Both the position numbers and the translations under genes were made by a program. Below are positions 51,790 through 61,813 of a stretch of 64,000 bases of DNA, in pieces. Numbering within the stretch: the stretch's first letter is position 1; each line of letters starts with the position of its first letter. The DNA is taken from contig CAZDJZ010000007.1 of assembly GCA_964505785.1 (NCBI GenBank), positions 35,629 to 99,628 on the forward strand, read 5' to 3'. The notes beneath the pieces are model-generated. The model saw only the letters and a list, made by a program, of their open reading frames with translations. It was not told the origin of the DNA and did no database searches. This stretch comes from an uncultured Eubacteriales bacterium. Its GTDB lineage: Bacteria; Acidobacteriota; Aminicenantia; Aminicenantales; Aminicenantaceae.

Positions 51790-51991
51790 ATTTAATTGCT
51801 CCCTGTTTATTAAAATTTCACATACCCAGGCTGATTAAACCAGGTTAGTGAATTAATTGTTATTATACCAAACCTTCCTCAGGGCAGTAAGGAAGGTTCA
51901 CATATATAAACAATTATTTATTCACTTTCGTTACATAAAGCCGCATGTTGGGCGGTTTCCGGTCACCGCGAGCGAGAAAAATGATCCCATA

Positions 51992-52228
51992 TGTCATTCC
52001 CCGGGCAGAACGACGCAGAAATCTTAGACTGCATTGTTATGCTCGCTGCGCTCACGTTCATCGCGTTCTTCGCGTTCCTTAAGTCTATTCGGTCTGTTCC
52101 GTCGGCTCGCTTCGTTCGCATGTTCATTGCAGTCTGCCTTGATATGATTTGCAGATTTGAGCTTTAAGATTTGAGATATTCAGAGCAGAATGAGATCTTT
52201 CTGGTGATTACACGCTCCTCCGGATGAC
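51992..52228. repeat. B-type interspersed mosaic element (opposite orientation)
   Basis: tgtcattccccgggcagaacgacgcagaaatcttagac...cgttcatcgcgttcttcgcgttcc...gtctattcggtctgttc...gatttgagctttaagatttgag...ctcctccggatgac. This is the reverse-complement order of the modules seen at 39936 and 53753. Confidence 0.65.
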
Positions 52229-52263
52229 CCTGGCGGGTTATTTTTGAACAAATGGTTCAGGTG

Positions 52264-52352
52264 TGGTGCGGAAGGTGGGACTCGAACCCACACGGCCTTT
52301 TGGGCCATAAACTCCTGAGGCTTACGCGTCTACCAGATTCCGCCACTTCCGC
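52264..52352 (-). tRNA. tRNA-Leu (anticodon CAG), CCA encoded
   Basis: The reverse complement reads GCGGAAGTGGCGGAATCTGGTAGACGCGTAAGCCTCAGGAGTTTATGGCCCAAAAGGCCGTGTGGGTTCGAGTCCCACCTTCCGCACCA. It has a 7-bp acceptor stem, an anticodon loop CTCAGGA, a long variable arm and a GTTCGAGTC T-loop. It is very similar to the E. coli tRNA-Leu(CAG) layout. Confidence 0.9.
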
Positions 52353-52585
52353 ACAAAAGCTTCGCGATTTGACATTATAGCGATATATGCAGATGCTGTA
52401 AAGTGAAAAGATACTTGACAAATATTACATCCGGCGTATCTTTAAAATGCGTGAGCAATTCCCCAAAATTATTCCCAGTAATGAACATCTGTCTTTTTTC
52501 CGGACAATACAATTCTCTGCTTTTATTTTTCCACTCGGCGGGCAACCTAAGTCTAATAAGGTCCCAGCCTTTTTTAGGAGGACAT

Positions 52586-53737
52586 ATGAAATTATTAAAC
52601 CAGGGACAACTCGAATCTCTCTCAAGATTCCGCAGCCGGAAACTTCCCATGATTTCCTTATTTCTCGATACCAGCCGCAACCGTCTTTCCAAGAAAGAGA
52701 TTCAAATTTCCCTCAAAAATTTGCTTCAGCATGGAAGGTCGAGGCTGAATCAAATGGATTTTTCCAAATCAGAAAAGGAATTCTTATCAAAGGAACTTGA
52801 TAAAATCGGCGCATACTGTTCACGCCGTCTTCCCGGTTATAAGTATGTTGGGATGGCGGTTTTCAGCTCTACAAAAGATGATTTCTGGCAAGATTTCGAA
52901 TTGGTAAAATCCCCGCGGAATATGATTATTTTTGACCAATCTCCATATGTGCGTCCCCTTTCTGCTGTTCTGGATGAATACCACCGGATTTGTGTTGTTA
53001 CATCCGATAAAAAATCCGCAGCTTGGTATGGCGTGTACATGGGAGAAATCACCCGGCTTGAAACTCTTTCCGGGAAAGATGAGCCCCAGCCGCGGGAATC
53101 AGGCCGGGAAGAATATAGTTCCAAGCGGATTGAACGCCATATAAATTCGATTCAGCACAGTCATTTTAAAAAAGCGGCGAAAACCACCTTTGATTTATGG
53201 AAACAGCATAAATTCGAGTGGCTTTTCATGGGAATTCCTGATAAATATGTCCCTGAATTTGAATCCCTTCTGCATCCATATATTAAAAAGAGCATTAAGG
53301 CCCGCATTAAAATAAAGCCCCAAGACTCTATGTCAAAAATCCTATCCAAAACTTTAGAGTTGAAACAAAAATTAAAAGAAGATGAGAGGAATGAAATTGT
53401 TAAGCGTTTTATAAAGGAATCCCATAAAGACGGTCTGGCGGTTGCCGGATTGGAACCAACCCTGAATAAACTGAACCGGGGTGAAATACAAACAATGCTT
53501 GTTACCCGATTTTTTTCTCAGCCGGGGATGCAATGCCCGGAATGCGGTTTTCTTTATCTTACCCGGAAAACCTGTTCCGTCTGCCATAAACCGACAGAAA
53601 AAGTTATGGACATCGTTGACCATGCGGTGGAAAACGCTTTGAACTCAAGCTGCCGGGTCAAGCACATCAGTCCGCCCTCTGATCTGGATGCTTACGGGAA
53701 AATCGGCGGTTTTCTCCGCTATAAAACGACGACCTGA
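52586..53737 (+). CDS. bacterial archaeo-eukaryotic release-factor-like protein (aeRF1/Pelota/Vms1-like, baeRF family) with C-terminal zinc ribbon insert
   Basis: Start at the ATG at 52586 after a taggagg RBS. ISLFLDT, SPYVRPL and VVTSDKKSAAWYGVY blocks. DGLAVAGLEPTLNKLNRGEIQTMLV resembles eRF1 domain 3. CPECG...CSVCH is a Zn ribbon. The C-terminal end is GKIGGFLRY. Confidence 0.55.
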   Translation: MKLLNQGQLESLSRFRSRKLPMISLFLDTSRNRLSKKEIQISLKNLLQHGRSRLNQMDFSKSEKEFLSKELDKIGAYCSRRLPGYKYVGMAVFSSTKDDFWQDFELVKSPRNMIIFDQSPYVRPLSAVLDEYHRICVVTSDKKSAAWYGVYMGEITRLETLSGKDEPQPRESGREEYSSKRIERHINSIQHSHFKKAAKTTFDLWKQHKFEWLFMGIPDKYVPEFESLLHPYIKKSIKARIKIKPQDSMSKILSKTLELKQKLKEDERNEIVKRFIKESHKDGLAVAGLEPTLNKLNRGEIQTMLVTRFFSQPGMQCPECGFLYLTRKTCSVCHKPTEKVMDIVDHAVENALNSSCRVKHISPPSDLDAYGKIGGFLRYKTTT

Positions 53738-53752
53738 ACTATTGACACACTG

Positions 53753-54022
53753 TGTCATCCTGAGGGCTGCGAAGCAGACCGCAAGGATCTTGTGCTGCCT
53801 CGCCTTAAAGAAGTGAAGAGTAAATCAAAGATCAAAAAAAATCCAAAGCCGAATAGGAGATCGGGGTCTTTATTTAAATTGAATGGACCGAACAGACTGA
53901 ATAGACAAAGACAAACCTGGAAAGACCCAGATGGACTAATATAAGCTAAAAGAACGCGAAGAACGCGAGCGAAGCGAGCAAGACCGCCTAAGATTCCCGT
54001 CGCTGCGCTCCGGGAATGACAT
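53753..54022. repeat. B-type interspersed mosaic element, full copy
   Basis: gtgtcatcctgagggctgcgaagcagaccgcaaggatcttgtgctgcctcg...ccaaagccgaataggagatcgggg...tttatttaaattgaatggaccgaacagactgaatagac...aaaagaacgcgaagaacgcgagcgaagcgagc...cgcctaagattcccgtcgctgcgctccgggaatgacat. Confidence 0.75.
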
Positions 54023-54072
54023 GGGGTCAACCGCAAGCGCGCAGCCAGCCGGGTGAACAGATCGAATTGCGG

Positions 54073-57000
54073 TTATTCCTCTTTAAATGAAACTCTATCA
54101 AACAAACTGTAGAGAATCGGGATAACAAACAGCGTCAGCAGGGTTGTTGCGACAAGGCCGCCGATAACCGCCACAGCCATGGGAGACCGCATCTCCGATC
54201 CGGCCGAAGTGGATATGGCCATGGGAACCATTCCCATGATGGTTGTCAATGCCGTAATCAGAACCGGACGCAATCGAACGGTACAGCCTTCAAGAATAGC
54301 TTCTTTCTTGTCCAATCCCCGGTTTTTCAGCTGATTGATATAATCGATCATAACAATACCGTTATTGACCGCGATTCCAGCCAGGATAATAAAACCTATA
54401 AGCGAAATTAAACTCAGAGTATTTCCGCTAATCAACAAAGCCAGCATCACTCCGACAAGGGCCAAGGGAATAGTAAACATGATGACAAACGGATGCAGAA
54501 ATGATTCAAATTGAGACGCCATTATCATATAAACCAGCAGCGTCGCCATCAAGAAAACCAAGATCATCGTCCTGAATGCCTCCTGCATATCTTCATATTG
54601 GCCACCGTATTCAATAAAATATCCTGTAGGGAGACCGGCATCAATCTCCGTTGTCCGGCTGATGACATCCTCCATAATGCTGCCGAGATCCCGTCCGGCG
54701 ATATTAGCCGAAACAGTCACAACTCTGGCTTGATTTTCCCGGTCGATCTGAACCGGACCTTCGCCTTCGGACACCTCGGCTATCTGATCAAGGCGCACCA
54801 TGGTGTTCATGGGCGTGACGACCGGAATATTTTTTATATCCCTTAATTCATCCCGGAATTCCTCCTGCAGCCGCACGCGCACATCGAATTCATCATTACC
54901 TTCACGGTAATGAGTGGCTACCGTTCCGAGAGAAGCCGTTTGAACCGTATTAGCCACCTGCGCAAGTGACAGCCCCATCCGCGAAGCTTTATCCCGGTCA
55001 ATATTGATTTGATATTCCGGCCTGCCTTCCGCCAGGGAATGCGTTACATCACGCAGGCCTTCAACGTCCTGAATCCGCGCGACCACATTATCCGCAATGG
55101 ACCTCAATCGTTCAATTTCATCGCCAAATATCTTCAATTCAACCGGGGCCATGGCACCGCCCATCATCATTTGGCTCATATCAATGGCTTCAAATTTCAC
55201 ATTTTGCAATCGGGGAAGTTTGAATCTGATTTTTTCCAAAATTTGCAAATCCGACAATTCACGCTCAGACTGATTAACCAAGCCCACCCAAAGCAGCGCC
55301 TCATGCGGGCCGGATGGAGAAAATCCGCTTCCCGTATCTGCCGGGTCATCCTCTGCTTGGGAGCCGATTTGCGCGGATACGATATCCACTCCAGGCTCTT
55401 CCAGCATCAATTTTTCAACCATGCCAGTAACACGGTTGGTCTCTTCCAAAGCGGTTCCGACCGGCATCTTCACTTGAAGCAGAATCATATCCCGGTCGGA
55501 TGCAGGCATAAATTCCGTCCCGACAAACGGAATGATGACAAAAGAGATTAAAAATATTCCCAGTGCTCCGGCTAAAACCCAACCCCGGTGCTTAAGTGCC
55601 GTGTGCAGGAGGCTGCGGTACCGTCCCCTGAATCGTTCAAATTGAACCTTTTTTTTCTTGTGGTTATTTGGACCGTTTTTGTTATTGGCCTTGAAAATCA
55701 ATGACGCAACCAAGGGAATAATCGTCAGGGCGACAAACAGCGAGGCAATCAGGGAAAAAGCAATGGCCAATGCTAACCCCCGGGTTAATTTCCCGGTGAT
55801 CCCGGACGCAAACATCATGGGGAAAAAGACGGCGATTGTGGTCAGTGTGGAAGCAGTGATAGCCATACCCACTTCGGAAGCACCTTTTTTTGCGGCATTA
55901 TCCCGCTTTTGGCCTTCCTCCAAATGGCGGAATATATTCTCGATCACAACAACCGCGTTATCCACCAGCATGCCGATCCCCAAGGCTAATCCGCCCAGTG
56001 TCAGTAAATTAATCGTATATCCAGCGGCATAAAACGCAATAAATGTCGTGATAATCGACAGGGGAATCGCCAATGCAATGGTGATTGTGGGACGCCAGTT
56101 GCGCAGAAAAAGCAGGATAAAAAAAACGGCCAGAATTCCACCGACCAAGGCATTATTTCCGGTCTGCCTGATCACTTGCTGAATCATATCCGATTGGTCC
56201 ATGGCCACATAAAAATTGATATCTTCAGGAAGATTCTTTTTGATTCTCTTCAGCTCTTCCTTGGCGGCTTCCGCGGTAATAACCGTGTTGGCTCCAGACC
56301 GCTTACTAACCATAAGATAAACTCCGCTTTCCTGCTGAATACGAGCCAAATACCGGGTTTCCTTCAGCGTATCTTCAACAACCGCCACATCGCTTAAATA
56401 AATCGGCTGATTGGATTCCGTGGAACCCACAACAATACCGCGAATATCATTCAGGGAATCGTACTCACCTTTAGTGCGGATTAAAAATTCCTTATGCCTC
56501 TCGACCAAATGGCCTGCAGGAAGATTCAAATTCTCCATCCGGAGTACTTGTATCACCTGCTGCAGGGACAATTTACGTGACTCCAAAGCCGGCATATCTA
56601 TATTAACCTGAATTTCACGGGTTTCGGGAGCAAAAACCTGGGACGATGCCACACCCTCGATTCTTTCAATCCGCATGGCGACTTCTTCTTCGATGATTTC
56701 CTTTAGTTCATCGACTGGCCGGTCACCGGTCACACCCCAAAAAACGATCGGCATCTGCGAGATATCAAATTTAACCACCATGGGATCGGACGCATCTTCA
56801 GGGAGATAACCGGCATAAATTCCGATCTGGTCCCGTATATCCTGCGCGGCAAAATCCAGATTGGTCCCCCATTCCAATTCAACCATGATAACTGAAACAC
56901 CTTCAGACGAAGTCGAATTAACATTTTTTACACCCGACACTGTATTGACTACCTGTTCCAGAGGCCGGGTTATGGTGTTTTCAATATCTTCCGGGGACAC

Positions 57001-57159
57001 CCCTTGATAGCTCGTGATAACTGAAACAGTCGGGAATTCCAGTTCAGGGAAAAAATCCAAGCCCAGCTGGGTATAGGCCAAAATTCCCAGCACAACCACG
57101 ATCATAACCAGCATGGAAGTCGTAACTTTACGGTTAACGGAAAATTCAGGCAGTTTCAT
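54073..57159 (-). CDS. RND efflux transporter permease (AcrB/HAE1-like)
   Basis: 1028 aa with a 12-TM, two-large-loop architecture. MKLPEFSVNRKVTTSMLVMIVVVLG, GMLVDNAVVVIENI and GIAVNNGIVMIDY. Confidence 0.95.
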   Translation of the reverse strand: MKLPEFSVNRKVTTSMLVMIVVVLGILAYTQLGLDFFPELEFPTVSVITSYQGVSPEDIENTITRPLEQVVNTVSGVKNVNSTSSEGVSVIMVELEWGTNLDFAAQDIRDQIGIYAGYLPEDASDPMVVKFDISQMPIVFWGVTGDRPVDELKEIIEEEVAMRIERIEGVASSQVFAPETREIQVNIDMPALESRKLSLQQVIQVLRMENLNLPAGHLVERHKEFLIRTKGEYDSLNDIRGIVVGSTESNQPIYLSDVAVVEDTLKETRYLARIQQESGVYLMVSKRSGANTVITAEAAKEELKRIKKNLPEDINFYVAMDQSDMIQQVIRQTGNNALVGGILAVFFILLFLRNWRPTITIALAIPLSIITTFIAFYAAGYTINLLTLGGLALGIGMLVDNAVVVIENIFRHLEEGQKRDNAAKKGASEVGMAITASTLTTIAVFFPMMFASGITGKLTRGLALAIAFSLIASLFVALTIIPLVASLIFKANNKNGPNNHKKKKVQFERFRGRYRSLLHTALKHRGWVLAGALGIFLISFVIIPFVGTEFMPASDRDMILLQVKMPVGTALEETNRVTGMVEKLMLEEPGVDIVSAQIGSQAEDDPADTGSGFSPSGPHEALLWVGLVNQSERELSDLQILEKIRFKLPRLQNVKFEAIDMSQMMMGGAMAPVELKIFGDEIERLRSIADNVVARIQDVEGLRDVTHSLAEGRPEYQINIDRDKASRMGLSLAQVANTVQTASLGTVATHYREGNDEFDVRVRLQEEFRDELRDIKNIPVVTPMNTMVRLDQIAEVSEGEGPVQIDRENQARVVTVSANIAGRDLGSIMEDVISRTTEIDAGLPTGYFIEYGGQYEDMQEAFRTMILVFLMATLLVYMIMASQFESFLHPFVIMFTIPLALVGVMLALLISGNTLSLISLIGFIILAGIAVNNGIVMIDYINQLKNRGLDKKEAILEGCTVRLRPVLITALTTIMGMVPMAISTSAGSEMRSPMAVAVIGGLVATTLLTLFVIPILYSLFDRVSFKEE

Positions 57160-58295
57160 TGGACCACCTCTGTCACATCCACGGGTGCACCTGCTTCTAA
57201 TCCATAATTACCTTCTATGACTACCAGCTCGCCTTCCAACAATCCTGAAAGAATTTCCACCATGGTCTCGTTTTGCAAACCGATCTCAACATTCCGCCGT
57301 TCAACTTTGTTTTCTTTGATCACAAAAACATAGCTGTTGTCCAGAATCGCCTTTTGAGGGACAGCTATAACATCTTTCCGTGAACTGATTTCCAGCCTGA
57401 TTTTGCCGAATGTATTCGGACGCAGAAGGTATTCGGGATTATCCGCCTGGATTTCCACCTTAAATTTCTTGCTGACCGGGTCAGCCGCAAGATTCACAAC
57501 CGATACCCGTCCTTCAAACATGCGGCCGGGGTAAGCGGAGACAGACAACGCAGCCGTTTGGCCTTTTTGGATAAGCACGACATCTTCATGGGCTGCTTCA
57601 ACTTCAATTTTGACTTTGCTGTAATCCATCAGGGTTAGAACACCGCTGTCAGGAGAAAATCCCCCCATCATGGGATTAATCACATCGCCTTCTTCTGCAT
57701 TTTTTGATGCCACAATCCCGGAAAAAGGTGCCCGCATGATGGAAACCTCCAGATTATATCGGGCAAGATTAACAGCCGCCCTGGCTTGCTTCAATTGCGC
57801 TTGAGCGGATTCATAGGCCAGGGACACCTTTTCCAGCTGCTGTTGAGAAACGGCGTTTTCTTCCCGCAGCCTTTCCATTCTTTTTAAATTTTTCTCCGTA
57901 TCTTCGGCATTGGCTTCAGCGGCTGACAGGGAGGCTTGGGCCTGCTCCAGTTGAAGCTTAATCGAACGGGTATCCAGTTCCGCCAGTAATTGTCCTTGAC
58001 TGACCTGGACACCTTCCTCTACATGGATTTTTGCGATTTTTCCTCCGACTTCCGGAGTAATGATCATTTTGCGCCTCGGTTCTATGGTTCCGGTATAAGT
58101 AAGCTGATCCGATATTCTGTCCCGGCTGACTTTATAGGCTTTGACCGGAGCCGCGCCGAAACTTTCCTGTGGTTGTGCCTCTTCCGGCTGATCCGGGGGA
58201 GACTGGCAGACCGTCATGGCAGCGGCAGCGGCAATGACAAGAATGATTTGACCCAACCATTTTGAATTTGTTTTCACTTTTTTTAATTGACTCAT
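57156..58295 (-). CDS. RND efflux periplasmic adaptor (membrane fusion protein, HlyD/AcrA family)
   Basis: Signal anchor, coiled-coil hairpin (LEQAQASLSAAEANAED...LKQARAAVNLARYNLE), and beta-barrel and MP domains. 4-nt overlap with the RND gene. Confidence 0.9.
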   Translation of the reverse strand: MSQLKKVKTNSKWLGQIILVIAAAAAMTVCQSPPDQPEEAQPQESFGAAPVKAYKVSRDRISDQLTYTGTIEPRRKMIITPEVGGKIAKIHVEEGVQVSQGQLLAELDTRSIKLQLEQAQASLSAAEANAEDTEKNLKRMERLREENAVSQQQLEKVSLAYESAQAQLKQARAAVNLARYNLEVSIMRAPFSGIVASKNAEEGDVINPMMGGFSPDSGVLTLMDYSKVKIEVEAAHEDVVLIQKGQTAALSVSAYPGRMFEGRVSVVNLAADPVSKKFKVEIQADNPEYLLRPNTFGKIRLEISSRKDVIAVPQKAILDNSYVFVIKENKVERRNVEIGLQNETMVEILSGLLEGELVVIEGNYGLEAGAPVDVTEVVQ

Positions 58296-58305
58296 TGTTC
58301 CTTCC

Positions 58306-59625
58306 TTACTCTATTCCCATCGCTCTATTCAACTCCGCCTGCGCGACAACATAATCGTACAAGGCCTGTGAATAATTGGTTTTTGCCTGGGCGAGTGCTG
58401 TTTGAGCCTGCTGCACATCCAGTACTGTCACCATTCCCTCTTTGAAATTCAATTCAGCAATCCTCAAGCTTTCACGGGCTTGATCAACATTTTTTTCCTG
58501 GGATATCATCGTTTGCCTGGCTCCCTCCAAATTTAGGACCGCTTGCCTGACTTCAAGCCTGATTTGATCCATCAATCCTTTTTGATTTAATTCCAGTTCC
58601 TTGACGGCGGTCTTTGCCTGTGCGACCTTGGCATGAGTCGCCAAACCGTTAAAAAGGGGGATATTGACTAATAAATTAAGGGAATAAAAATTCTGCCAGG
58701 TATCCGCCTTAAGATTGAACTGGTCCGACCAGTAATTATACTGCCCCGAAATTGAGACCGACGGCAACCCGGATGCCGCAGCCATATTAACGGCTTCTCC
58801 AGCCATTCTTTTTTGGAAACGGAACTGCTTAAGTTCCGGCCGTTTTTCCACAGCCGTATTTAAACATTCTTCCAAAACCGGCTCCACCGGCTCATACTTG
58901 AGCTCCCCTTTTACTTCAATAGGATGAGACTGGTCCATTCCGAGAATATTTTTCAGGCTTAGTTTTGCAACCTCAAGATTATTCCGGGCCCTGATCAGCT
59001 GCGGCTTCAAATTCGCGACTTGAACTTCAGATCGTAATAAATCGAACTTGGATGCCAAGCCGACTTCATATTGAATTTGAATATTATTATGCAGCTTTTC
59101 CGCAACATCTACGGCTTCCTGGGCCACATCAATAAATTCCCTGGCCAACAGAATGCCGTAAAATGCTCTTTTTGTATTGAAAATTATATTCTGCTGTGAT
59201 TGACGCAAACCTTCCCGTGATGATTTCACTTGATAATTCGCTTGTTTATAACCGGAAATCAACTGCCCTCCCGTAAATACCGGAATATTCAGGGCAAGCG
59301 TCAATTGATAATCACGAGTGAAGTCCACTTCCACTCTTTGCGGCGGATCCCCCGGAACCATGGAAGGAAATTCCAATTCCATGACTTTTTCAGATAAATT
59401 TTTAGTTCCCTGGGCATTGAGCGAGGGGAAAAACGCAGCGGCGGCTTGCCTAACCTGGCTTTGAGCTGAAGCCACCTTTTTTTCCGCGGCCAAATGAAAG
59501 GGATTTTGCTCCAGAGCCAGCCTTAGGCTGTCCTCAAGAGTCAATGTTATCTTTTCTTGAGACTGGAGCGGGATTCCTGTGCAAGTATAGCCGCACATCA
59601 ACAAAATCAGCATCATTTTCTTCAT
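58306..59625 (-). CDS. TolC-family outer membrane efflux protein
   Basis: Two TolC repeats with characteristic coiled-coil segments (LTLEDSLRLALEQNP..., YDYVVAQAELNRAMG). Confidence 0.9.
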   Translation of the reverse strand: MKKMMLILLMCGYTCTGIPLQSQEKITLTLEDSLRLALEQNPFHLAAEKKVASAQSQVRQAAAAFFPSLNAQGTKNLSEKVMELEFPSMVPGDPPQRVEVDFTRDYQLTLALNIPVFTGGQLISGYKQANYQVKSSREGLRQSQQNIIFNTKRAFYGILLAREFIDVAQEAVDVAEKLHNNIQIQYEVGLASKFDLLRSEVQVANLKPQLIRARNNLEVAKLSLKNILGMDQSHPIEVKGELKYEPVEPVLEECLNTAVEKRPELKQFRFQKRMAGEAVNMAAASGLPSVSISGQYNYWSDQFNLKADTWQNFYSLNLLVNIPLFNGLATHAKVAQAKTAVKELELNQKGLMDQIRLEVRQAVLNLEGARQTMISQEKNVDQARESLRIAELNFKEGMVTVLDVQQAQTALAQAKTNYSQALYDYVVAQAELNRAMGIE

Positions 59626-59628
59626 GAT

Positions 59629-60297
59629 TTACTCCTTTTTGCTCCTTATACCGTTGAGAAAATAATCATGCAGGAGATCCGCACTTTGCTCTACGGAATA
59701 ATTTTTTTCCCGCATGGGCCCTCTAAAATGGAACCCCCTCAGCATGGCGCCGAATATATAGGCGGCTTCTTCAACATCCACATTGCGAAATTCTCCGGCG
59801 GAAACACCCTCCCGGATAATTTCGCAGGAAGATTGAAACATATACTGCACCATCTGCCGGAAATCATCGGGAATATGCTCCTTCGCTTCACAAAGCATTA
59901 TGTGACTTTTCATATCCATCCCCATAATTTTTTTCATCACTTCCGGTTCGAAAAAAAATATCCTGGCTATATTCTGTTTCTGCTGGTAATAATGAAGAAT
60001 AAATAAAACCATATGTTTGATTTTAGATTCTGCAGAATCGGCAGCCTGCCGGATTTTTTCGATCTCATCCCGTGCTTCCCGGAAGGAATTCAAGACAATT
60101 TCTGAAAAAATCTCCAGCTTACTGTTAAAATACCGGTAAATCGTCGCCTTGGAAAACTGAGCTTCCTCCGCGATATCATCGACGGACGTCTGAGTAAAAC
60201 CATTTCGAGCGAAAATATCTTCCGCCGCCTCCAATATAAACTGCCGATTTTCCAGTCTGCGCTTTTCCTTTCTCTGATCTCTTAAGTTTTTTTTCAT
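59629..60297 (-). CDS. TetR/AcrR-family transcriptional regulator
   Basis: HTH region FTQTSVDDIAEEAQFSKATIYRYFNSK. Start at MKKNLRD (60297). First gene of the efflux operon. Confidence 0.9.
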   Translation of the reverse strand: MKKNLRDQRKEKRRLENRQFILEAAEDIFARNGFTQTSVDDIAEEAQFSKATIYRYFNSKLEIFSEIVLNSFREARDEIEKIRQAADSAESKIKHMVLFILHYYQQKQNIARIFFFEPEVMKKIMGMDMKSHIMLCEAKEHIPDDFRQMVQYMFQSSCEIIREGVSAGEFRNVDVEEAAYIFGAMLRGFHFRGPMREKNYSVEQSADLLHDYFLNGIRSKKE

Positions 60298-60320
60298 AAT
60301 AAACTCACCAGTTCTTAACA

Positions 60321-60336
60321 TAAACTTAACAGTTTA
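60321..60336. promoter_or_regulatory. candidate TetR operator (short inverted repeat)
   Basis: taaact-taac-agttta, with 6-bp arms, lies 24-39 nt upstream of the TetR start. The support is weak and positional only. Confidence 0.25.
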
Positions 60337-60910: not shown

Positions 60911-61813
60911 CTATGCCCGGGGGTGGAACTTGTCATAGACCTGCCGCATACGGCGACGGGAAACATGGGTATAAATCTGAGTGGTGGTAATCTGACTGTG
61001 ACCCAGCATCATCTGGACAGAGCGTAAATCGGCACCCCGCTCTAAAAGATGGGTGGCAAAAGAATGGCGCAAAACATGCGGGCTTATACCTGGATCCAAT
61101 CCTGCCCGGTTCGCATACTTTTTCAGCATCTTCCAAAATCCCTGGCGTGTGAAATAACTTCCCCTGGATGTCAAAAAAAGAAAATCCGTCTCTTGCTTCA
61201 ACAGCACGGGCCTCGCTGATTCCAAATACGATCTGACTGCCTTGGATGCGGATTTACCCAAGGGAACCACCCTTTCTTTACTGCCTTTTCCCCGGCAGAT
61301 GAGAAATCCATCCTGAAAATTGATGTCCTTGGTCCTCAGTTTGATCAATTCGGACACCCGCAGGCCGGTGGCATACATCAATTCCAGCATGGCAACATCA
61401 CGGCATCCCCGGGTTTCCCGGCTATCCGGCTGGTTGAGCAGCTTTTCCACTTCTTCAAACTTCAAAAATTTCGGCAGATTGAGCCATAATTTGGGAGCGC
61501 CAAGGTTCTCCGCCGGATTTTTTTTCAGAGTTCCGTCCAGAATCAGAAAACGGTAAAAGGCCCGAATGGCGGAAACAGCGCGGGCAACAGAACGGGCGGA
61601 CAGGCCGGCTTTGCGCTGGTCATGGATAAATTTGACCAGATGAGACTCCTCCACTTTTTCCCAGGTAATCTTTTCCTTGCGCAGGAAATAAAACAGCTTC
61701 ATAAGGTCCAGAGAATAGGACTGCAGTGAATTGGAAGATAAACCCTTTTCAACGGATAAATAATCCAGAAATATCCTCAAGATTTCTTCATCCGGAGAAG
61801 AAAGCGCGTTCAT
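60911..61813 (-). CDS. xerD: tyrosine site-specific recombinase XerD
   Basis: N-terminal FLDYLSVEKGLSSNSLQSYSLDL. Catalytic region HVLRHSFATHLLERGADLRSVQMMLGHSQITTTQIYTHV; 300 aa. Confidence 0.8.
   Translation of the reverse strand: MNALSSPDEEILRIFLDYLSVEKGLSSNSLQSYSLDLMKLFYFLRKEKITWEKVEESHLVKFIHDQRKAGLSARSVARAVSAIRAFYRFLILDGTLKKNPAENLGAPKLWLNLPKFLKFEEVEKLLNQPDSRETRGCRDVAMLELMYATGLRVSELIKLRTKDINFQDGFLICRGKGSKERVVPLGKSASKAVRSYLESARPVLLKQETDFLFLTSRGSYFTRQGFWKMLKKYANRAGLDPGISPHVLRHSFATHLLERGADLRSVQMMLGHSQITTTQIYTHVSRRRMRQVYDKFHPRA

Follow-up and report, generated by a model that had tools for sequence, protein, structure and literature searches.

The gene and its product

The window analysed here, a stretch of 64,000 nucleotides (nt) from contig CAZDJZ010000007.1 of an uncultured Aminicenantes bacterium (assembly GCA_964505785.1), carries on its forward strand, at positions 52586..53737 with the stop codon included, a gene for a homologue of archaeo-eukaryotic release factor 1 (aeRF1). 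The gene stands between a divergent tRNA gene and a convergent efflux operon. Its product belongs to family 10 of the bacterial aeRF1-like (baeRF) proteins and is probably a ribosome-inactivating factor of the Balon type.

The open reading frame and its translation of 383 amino acids (aa) agree in coordinates, strand and length with the initial annotation of this DNA, and every motif string quoted there is present in the protein. The ATG lies four bases downstream of a Shine-Dalgarno sequence, AGGAGG (52576..52581, forward strand), a motif and spacing kept in 30 orthologous loci: all 30 of those examined share AGGAGG, a short spacer and a start reading ATG-AAA-(C/T)T(N), giving MKL. A 444-aa frame that opens with a GTG at 52403 was rejected as an artefact because this start is conserved across the orthologues. 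The isoelectric point (pI) of the 383-aa protein is 9.6.

Family assignment and fold

Residues 120-259 match the Pfam model PF18854, baeRF_family10, over model positions 1-141 of 143 with a score of 55.7 bits (E=8.5e-15), the curated gathering cut-off of the model being 27.1 bits; in a scan of the whole genome the protein scored 58.5 bits. The C-terminal domain matched PF03465 (eRF1_3) at E=1e-3, which lies under the cut-off, and TIGR03676, the model for aRF1 and eRF1 themselves, gave 49.3 bits against a cut-off of 234.7. Among relatives of solved structure, phmmer ranked Msmeg1130 first (8v9j_z, E=4.6e-5, residues 57-366), and the Balon protein of Psychrobacter urativorans (8rd8) was found at E=7e-3. 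A profile built from 29 orthologues matched eRF1, aRF1 and Msmeg1130 at about 2e-7.

The alignment of the same 29 orthologues was used to make an AlphaFold2 model (predicted local distance difference test score, pLDDT, 76.6; predicted TM-score, pTM, 0.56), and its top Foldseek match was again Msmeg1130 (8v9j_z), over the full length, with E=4e-21 and TM-scores of 0.60-0.63 (0.60-0.62 when normalised to the query, TMq). The next full-length match was aRF1 (4af1, E=2e-15), and P. urativorans Balon was also matched along its full length (E about 1e-14, TM 0.56-0.61, TMq 0.56-0.58). Many eRF1 chains came after Balon and then Rv2629, also over the full length (E=2.5e-10). Pelota and Dom34 appeared as weak partial matches (E about 1e-4 to 1e-3, TM 0.23-0.34). 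Since the PF18854 score clears its cut-off and the best structural match has so small an E-value, the resemblance to eRF1 is not due to chance. As modelled, the protein has the three-domain aeRF1 fold, and it is a member of baeRF family 10.

The initial annotation had proposed a bacterial protein of the aeRF1/Pelota/Vms1 kind with a zinc ribbon in its last domain, to be assigned to a baeRF family by profile search, and had allowed that a different fold might bear a superficial likeness. The profile search supplied the family, with a score above the cut-off, and the model, Foldseek and profiles together located the equivalents of eRF1 domains 1-3. The first of the three affinities is thus upheld and so is the zinc ribbon; the other two fare less well, the Pelota/Dom34 matches being weak and partial, and the VLRF1 family (for example PF18859) being absent among the Pfam matches of the protein at E<=1. 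The statement that such proteins lack experimental characterisation in bacteria no longer holds: Balon has been solved on the ribosome (PMC10901736), and Msmeg1130, a characterised hibernation factor, itself scores as baeRF_family10, at 126 bits for residues 57-360 as copied from the phmmer alignment. The same Pfam scan assigns P. urativorans Balon to baeRF family 3.

Domains and zinc ribbon

The secondary structure of the AlphaFold2 model delimits an N-terminal domain (residues 1-117; 52586..52936, forward strand) that would be the equivalent of the decoding-centre domain of eRF1 and Balon, and Foldseek also matched it to the isolated N-domain of eRF1 (2llx; target-normalised TM-score, TMt, 0.56). 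The stop-codon motifs NIKS, GTS and YxCxxxF were absent in a search of the window protein, and a regular-expression search of it for GGQ and NIKS found neither. The domain carries a conserved basic loop, D28-E38 (DTSRNRLSKKE; 52667..52699, forward strand), with D28, T29, K36, K37 and E38 invariant or almost so among the 29 orthologues. In the phmmer alignment to 8rd8_B this loop stands opposite KTHREHPANDQD, aligning with the HP-motif loop of P. urativorans Balon.

The middle domain, of the RNase H fold (residues 118-262; 52937..53371, forward strand), is defined by the PF18854 match and by the profile, which aligns it to domain 2 of eRF1; Foldseek matched it to the eRF1 M-domain 2hst with a TMt of 0.67. 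A C-terminal domain of the eRF1_3/Pelota type follows (residues 263-383; 53372..53734, forward strand), recognised from the sub-threshold PF03465 match and from a profile of these 121 residues, which reaches eRF1 and the aRF1 structures 4af1 and 3ir9. A search of the PDB with the single sequence of the same 121 residues returned weak matches to bL32 and a chemokine only. The terminal motif YGKIGGFLRY is aligned with FGGI[AG][AG]ILRY of aRF1 and eRF1, which in eRF1 reads FGGIGGILRY.

Inside the C-terminal domain lies a four-cysteine zinc ribbon, CPEC-x9-CSVC (C317-C333; 53534..53584, forward strand), whose four cysteines are invariant in all 29 orthologues. The initial annotation had given its spacing as CPECG-x13-CSVCH; the correct reading is CPECG-x8-CSVCH, with the cysteines at C317, C320, C330 and C333. 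It had also called the ribbon inserted. A zinc ribbon within the Pelota-type C-domain is a classical feature of aeRF1 proteins, which many baeRF families have swapped for a two-strand insert (PMC6514570). In the alignment of the C-terminal profile both CxxC knuckles fall on the cysteine-bearing insert of archaeal aRF1 (4af1, 3ir9). Given this alignment and the published ancestral state, we read the ribbon from its sequence as a retained ancestral feature and not as a new insertion.

The loop equivalent to GGQ

The equivalent of the GGQ region of eRF1 is a loop followed by a helix, R170-H185 (53093..53140, forward strand), which reads RESGREEYSSKRIERH and contains no glutamine. In the profile alignment the family loop, VREGGWEGYESKRIERH, lies opposite the GGQ stretch of human eRF1 with GG paired with GG, and the window protein has PRESGREEYSSKRIERH at this stretch. 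Its loop reads RESGREEY, with ESGR at the tip, against a consensus of REGGWEGY, with EGGW; there is no conserved glutamine, and the residue after the GG pair is W, F or R, not Q. Column counts among the 29 orthologues are 24 for G172, 28 for G173 and 18 for W174 (R in six), while S179, K180, R181, I182, E183, R184 and H185 are nearly invariant. The only glutamine near the loop, Q168, is not conserved.

Family 10 was singled out for a conserved glutamine in its catalytic loop (PMC6514570), a residue that the window protein does not have. We collected 2085 relatives from 1.84 billion representative proteins, 163 of them at E<=1e-30, and assigned loop types by alignment, with 134 representatives as the rows of a tree. 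Two types emerged. The shorter, H[DK]QGGW[SA]QAR[FL]QRH, keeps the glutamine, and its GGW[SA]Q core is presumably what was described as the conserved glutamine of family 10 (PMC6514570). The other is three residues longer and lacks the glutamine ([RK]xGG[WFY]xG[YL]xE[KR]RIERH); it forms a supported clade of 86 of the 134 rows (Shimodaira-Hasegawa-like support 97), within which the window protein belongs to an Aminicenantes sub-clade with a support of 100. The 78 Aminicenantes orthologues include a clade of 61 rows in which EGGWEGYESKRIER hardly varies; in the 17-row clade that includes the window protein the tip has drifted to GGR, GGL, SGR, TGR and KGR, with SKRIERH remaining fixed. Drift is not what one would expect of a catalytic tip, so this pattern of a drifting tip and a fixed basic helix argues for a protein that may bind rRNA without catalysis. 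Action on peptidyl-tRNA, one of the two predictions in the initial annotation, is unlikely because the loop equivalent to GGQ has no glutamine.

Distribution and host genome

The host genome is a metagenome-assembled Aminicenantes genome of 3.13 Mb in 50 contigs, about 90% complete. It encodes RF1, RF2 and a 146-aa ArfB-like protein, and the window protein is therefore not its primary release factor. It also has two S30AE/HPF genes, both located elsewhere. An orthologue of the window protein is encoded by 121 species genomes, almost all of them labelled Aminicenantes. In a sample of 151 genomes of the same class, the gene is present once in 45 of 45 genomes of the same order and in 18 of 19 others of the same family, and in 11 of 86 from other families. 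With a single copy in almost every one of the order and family genomes, it is a core, vertically inherited gene across the order.

A probable Balon-type role

Helena-Bueno et al. 2024 (PMC10901736) showed for Balon, a bacterial aeRF1 homologue, that it sits with EF-Tu in the A site of ribosomes, whether these are vacant or translating. A-site binding and inhibition of translation were also shown for Rv2629 and for Msmeg1130, which inhibits in vitro and has been solved in the A site of the 70S ribosome of Mycobacterium smegmatis. Any bacterial aeRF1 homologue with 300 aa or more was counted there as a Balon homologue, and such proteins are present in about 20% of bacteria (PMC10901736). With its 383 residues, three domains and full-length Foldseek matches the window protein falls within that definition, and it has the Balon-type trait of lacking both GGQ and NIKS.

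The window gene probably encodes a non-catalytic A-site hibernation or inactivation factor of the Balon type. We base this on the fold, the membership of family 10, the loss of the catalytic and decoding motifs, the conservation of the basic elements, the presence of canonical release and rescue factors and of two HPF genes in the genome and the single-copy conservation across the order; A-site binding, delivery by EF-Tu and the physiological trigger we infer. When growth is arrested or the cell is under stress, this basic protein would enter the A site, its C-terminal domain probably serving for delivery by EF-Tu. The basic loop of the N-domain would contact the decoding centre without reading the mRNA. 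Next to the peptidyl-transferase centre (PTC), the middle-domain loop and the helix rich in Arg and Lys that follows it, RESGREEYSSKRIERH, would rest on 23S rRNA and leave peptidyl-tRNA unhydrolysed. Ribosomes would in this way be parked and protected.

Msmeg1130 (MSMEG_1130; PDB 8v9j/8v9l; NF052288) is the closest of the characterised proteins, sharing the Pfam family and giving the best structural match. It has in common with the window protein a linker motif between the N and M domains, D..P...PL...LDE, and both lack GGQ and NIKS. Msmeg1130 has no cysteines at the site of the zinc ribbon, whereas the window protein keeps four, and it belongs to a hypoxia/stress regulon, whereas the window gene has a tRNA-Leu/RND efflux neighbourhood. 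In the family tree Msmeg1130 sits on a long branch without a supported position. P. urativorans Balon (8rd8, 8rdv, 8rdw; NF052287) shares the three-domain aeRF1 fold, the length of the N-domain loop and the LKN motif that follows it, and likewise lacks GGQ and NIKS; its gene is often beside RaiA, which the window gene is not. With aRF1 and eRF1 (TIGR03676; 4af1, 3ir9, 1dt9) the window protein shares the domain order, a GG pair followed by a basic helix and the C-terminal G-IGG-LRY motif, and with aRF1 a zinc-ribbon insert at the same site. It differs from both in having no catalytic glutamine, NIKS, YxCxxxF or GTS, and in coexisting with RF1 and RF2.

Several observations weigh against a Balon-type assignment. 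The NCBIfam Balon models NF052287, NF052288 and NF052289 gave 46.2, 42.3 and 38.7 bits against cut-offs of 330, 480 and 320, and identity to Msmeg1130 is about 15-16% only. P. urativorans Balon has an HP motif and a long lasso loop, and the window protein has neither: there is no His-Pro in its N-domain loop, the sole His-Pro being at residue 230 in another domain, and its middle-domain loop is of eRF1-like length and far shorter than the lasso loop. The AlphaFold2 model is of moderate quality, with the last 29 residues (355-383) poor and the C-terminus below a pLDDT of 50. In this genome the gene is not adjacent to HPF or to recognisable stress genes, and its order-wide core distribution, divergent from a tRNA gene, is unlike the patchy horizontal pattern described for baeRF genes. 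The middle-domain loop of Msmeg1130 is also short, however, so the lasso loop may not define the wider family.

Linkage to HPF does occur within this loop type. Outside the Aminicenantes the genes of this loop type are surrounded by unrelated genes, none of them for efflux. In one such genome (GCA_026004195.1) an S30AE(HPF) gene is followed after 22 nt by a family 10 gene lacking the glutamine, and this matches the HPF-baeRF linkage reported previously (PMC6514570, PMC10901736). The HPF gene in question (L095:3987-4979, forward strand; 330 aa) encodes a chimera of S30AE/HPF (28.9 bits) with a sigma-70 region 4/PhyR-like part.

The window protein belongs, as a divergent member, to a family that already has a name and solved structures. 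Its family, fold and likely role have already been published and, taken alone, the gene opens no new question. What it adds is an extension of the Balon/baeRF family 10 group to the Aminicenantes, an uncultured sediment lineage, where almost all genomes of the order carry it as a single-copy core gene, unlike the patchy occurrence of a stress-island gene. Four differences set it apart from the characterised members: the ancestral features it has kept, the lack of the HP motif and lasso, the core single-copy status and the tRNA-Leu/RND neighbourhood. Its near-ancestral form, retaining the zinc ribbon, the GG loop and an eRF1-like C-terminus, recommends it for studies of the conversion of an archaeal release factor into a bacterial ribosome-silencing factor.

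A possible rescue factor of the Pelota/Dom34 kind

A Pelota/Dom34-like protein would be a non-catalytic rescue factor that enters empty A sites when ribosomes stall on truncated or damaged mRNA, and that promotes subunit splitting or recycling and not long-term hibernation. Such a role has been proposed for baeRF proteins (PMC6514570). Pelota and Dom34 belong to the same superfamily and are likewise non-catalytic, the glutamine being absent from Dom34 as it is here; the core-gene distribution, too, suits housekeeping quality control better than it suits a stress island. The structural comparison points the other way. Balon and aRF1 are matched along their full length, whereas Pelota and Dom34 give a partial match, with a best E of 3e-4 or worse and TM no higher than 0.34, and the N-domain is of the eRF1 type (the 2llx match) and not the Sm-like barrel found in Pelota and Dom34. 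To our knowledge the partner ABCE1 is absent from bacteria, which counts against this alternative, as does the ArfB-like protein already present in the genome. The only bacterial members that have been tested are hibernation factors (PMC10901736). We consider a Pelota-like function unlikely.

The neighbourhood and a possible tie to efflux

The divergent neighbour of the gene is tRNA-Leu(CAG) (52264..52352, reverse strand), identified by ARAGORN and by the Rfam tRNA model at 54.6 bits. It lies upstream on the opposite strand, as the initial annotation stated, at a distance of 233 nt. Beyond it this flank holds a GWxTD/TPR operon, and it too is divergent from the gene. Of 36 orthologous loci, 31 have tRNA-Leu(CAG) in the same divergent position, with variable genes beyond, even where protein identity is as low as about 43%; it is missing only in a clade in which the baeRF gene lies downstream of AcrB. 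The spacers between tRNA and gene range from 175 to 624 nt. Rfam found no known RNA element other than the tRNA in the leader or spacer. A consensus scan gave back-to-back sigma-70-like hexamer pairs at 52374..52442, one for the tRNA (52402-52374, reverse strand) and one for the gene (52415-52442, forward strand), matching at 11 of 12 and 10 of 12 positions and lying 13 nt apart. These candidate promoters are suggestive, the number of such sites being not above the expectation from shuffled sequence.

Downstream, the 335-nt spacer between the convergent stop codons (53738..54072) holds the dispersed sequence that was noted at the outset as a B-type repeat, with 268 BLASTN matches across the genome. 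A repeat search confined to a 400-nt spacer found nothing; the repeats appeared in the whole-genome BLASTN comparison. The upstream spacer, 51790-52585, also has dispersed short repeats, with 103 matches genome-wide.

The convergent neighbour, which is not part of the gene, is a TetR-OEP-MFP-AcrB RND efflux operon identified by Pfam (54073..60321, reverse strand). A gene for a XerC/D-type tyrosine recombinase (Phage_integrase with an N-terminal SAM-like domain) lies beyond it at 60911-61813 on the reverse strand. Of 75 informative loci, 67 have an efflux gene no more than 1.5 kb away, with protein identities spanning 43-81%; AcrB is convergent in 53 of these and OEP in seven, and in the remaining seven the baeRF gene follows AcrB on the same strand at a distance of about 110 nt (L015, L022, L027, L032, L040, L043 and L044). 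This co-directional arrangement may be an operon fusion. Loop degeneration is greatest in the clade that has it, where the loop reads GE[TK]GREGFGSQSLEK.

So persistent an association raises the idea of an A-site/PTC factor tied to the TetR-controlled RND operon, which, in drug or toxin stress, would park or shield ribosomes until the pump has removed a compound that targets them. The co-directional genes could be co-transcribed with AcrB, and multidrug exporters are listed among the neighbours of Balon genes (PMC10901736). In 60 loci, however, the genes are convergent and so are not co-transcribed, and the co-directional form, all examples of which fall in one clade, represents a single rearrangement; we rejected it as independent support for a functional link. 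The tRNA-Leu gene on the opposite side is equally conserved, and relatives outside the Aminicenantes have no efflux neighbours. The linkage is compatible with inherited synteny and is no proof of a functional tie to the pump, and we regard an efflux-coupled role as quite improbable. A kindred proposal is that the family 10 sub-type with a GG-aromatic loop and a zinc ribbon is a functionally distinct A-site factor that parks or shields ribosomes under drug or toxin stress and not in starvation hibernation, which we regard as just as improbable as the efflux tie. In that case it would have become, in the Aminicenantales, a core gene of vertical inheritance kept beside tRNA-Leu(CAG) and the TetR-controlled RND operon, and the aromatic residue or arginine at the former glutamine position would stack on a PTC nucleotide.

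Catalysis and the second family 10 gene

A catalytic role, as a peptidyl-tRNA hydrolase or an alternative release factor, is the least probable of the alternatives and a very improbable one: the conserved glutamine retained in family 10 (PMC6514570), the H[DK]QGGW[SA]QAR loop of many relatives and of a second copy in this genome (VGGWSQQRYERR), and the eRF1-like GG pair and loop length speak for it, but the window protein has the longer loop type without glutamine, reads ESGR with an unconserved Q168 nearby, comes from a sub-clade whose loop tip drifts and shares its genome with RF1 and RF2, and Msmeg1130, a family 10 protein with a glutamine near the GGQ position (AGQ in the HMMER alignment), is nevertheless a hibernation factor.

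The second baeRF family 10 gene of the genome (C4:111580-112680, reverse strand, equal to L091:6081-7181) encodes a 366-aa protein that scores 76.8 bits on PF18854 and also exceeds the cut-offs of eRF1_2, acVLRF1 and baeRF_family2. Contig C4 is among the BLASTN matches of the spacer repeats, which supports its placement in the same genome. Two family 10 genes were found in this genome only among the 151 sampled from the class. The loop of the second copy, VRVGGWSQQRYERR, keeps the glutamine, and a CxxC..CxxC ribbon is present; another family of the class has orthologues of this copy at 39-42% identity, in which the loop, HVKxGGWSQQRYERRRDK, does not vary. Judged by these sequences, the second copy is a better candidate than the window protein for a bacterial hydrolase of the eRF1 kind with catalytic activity. 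An adjacency to YigZ/UPF0029 was not seen in four loci orthologous to the second copy; in the present genome two genes lie upstream of that copy (L091:7410-8850, reverse strand), a UPF0029/YigZ (IMPACT-family) gene that encodes an EFG_C-like domain and an overlapping one for a 267-aa membrane protein.

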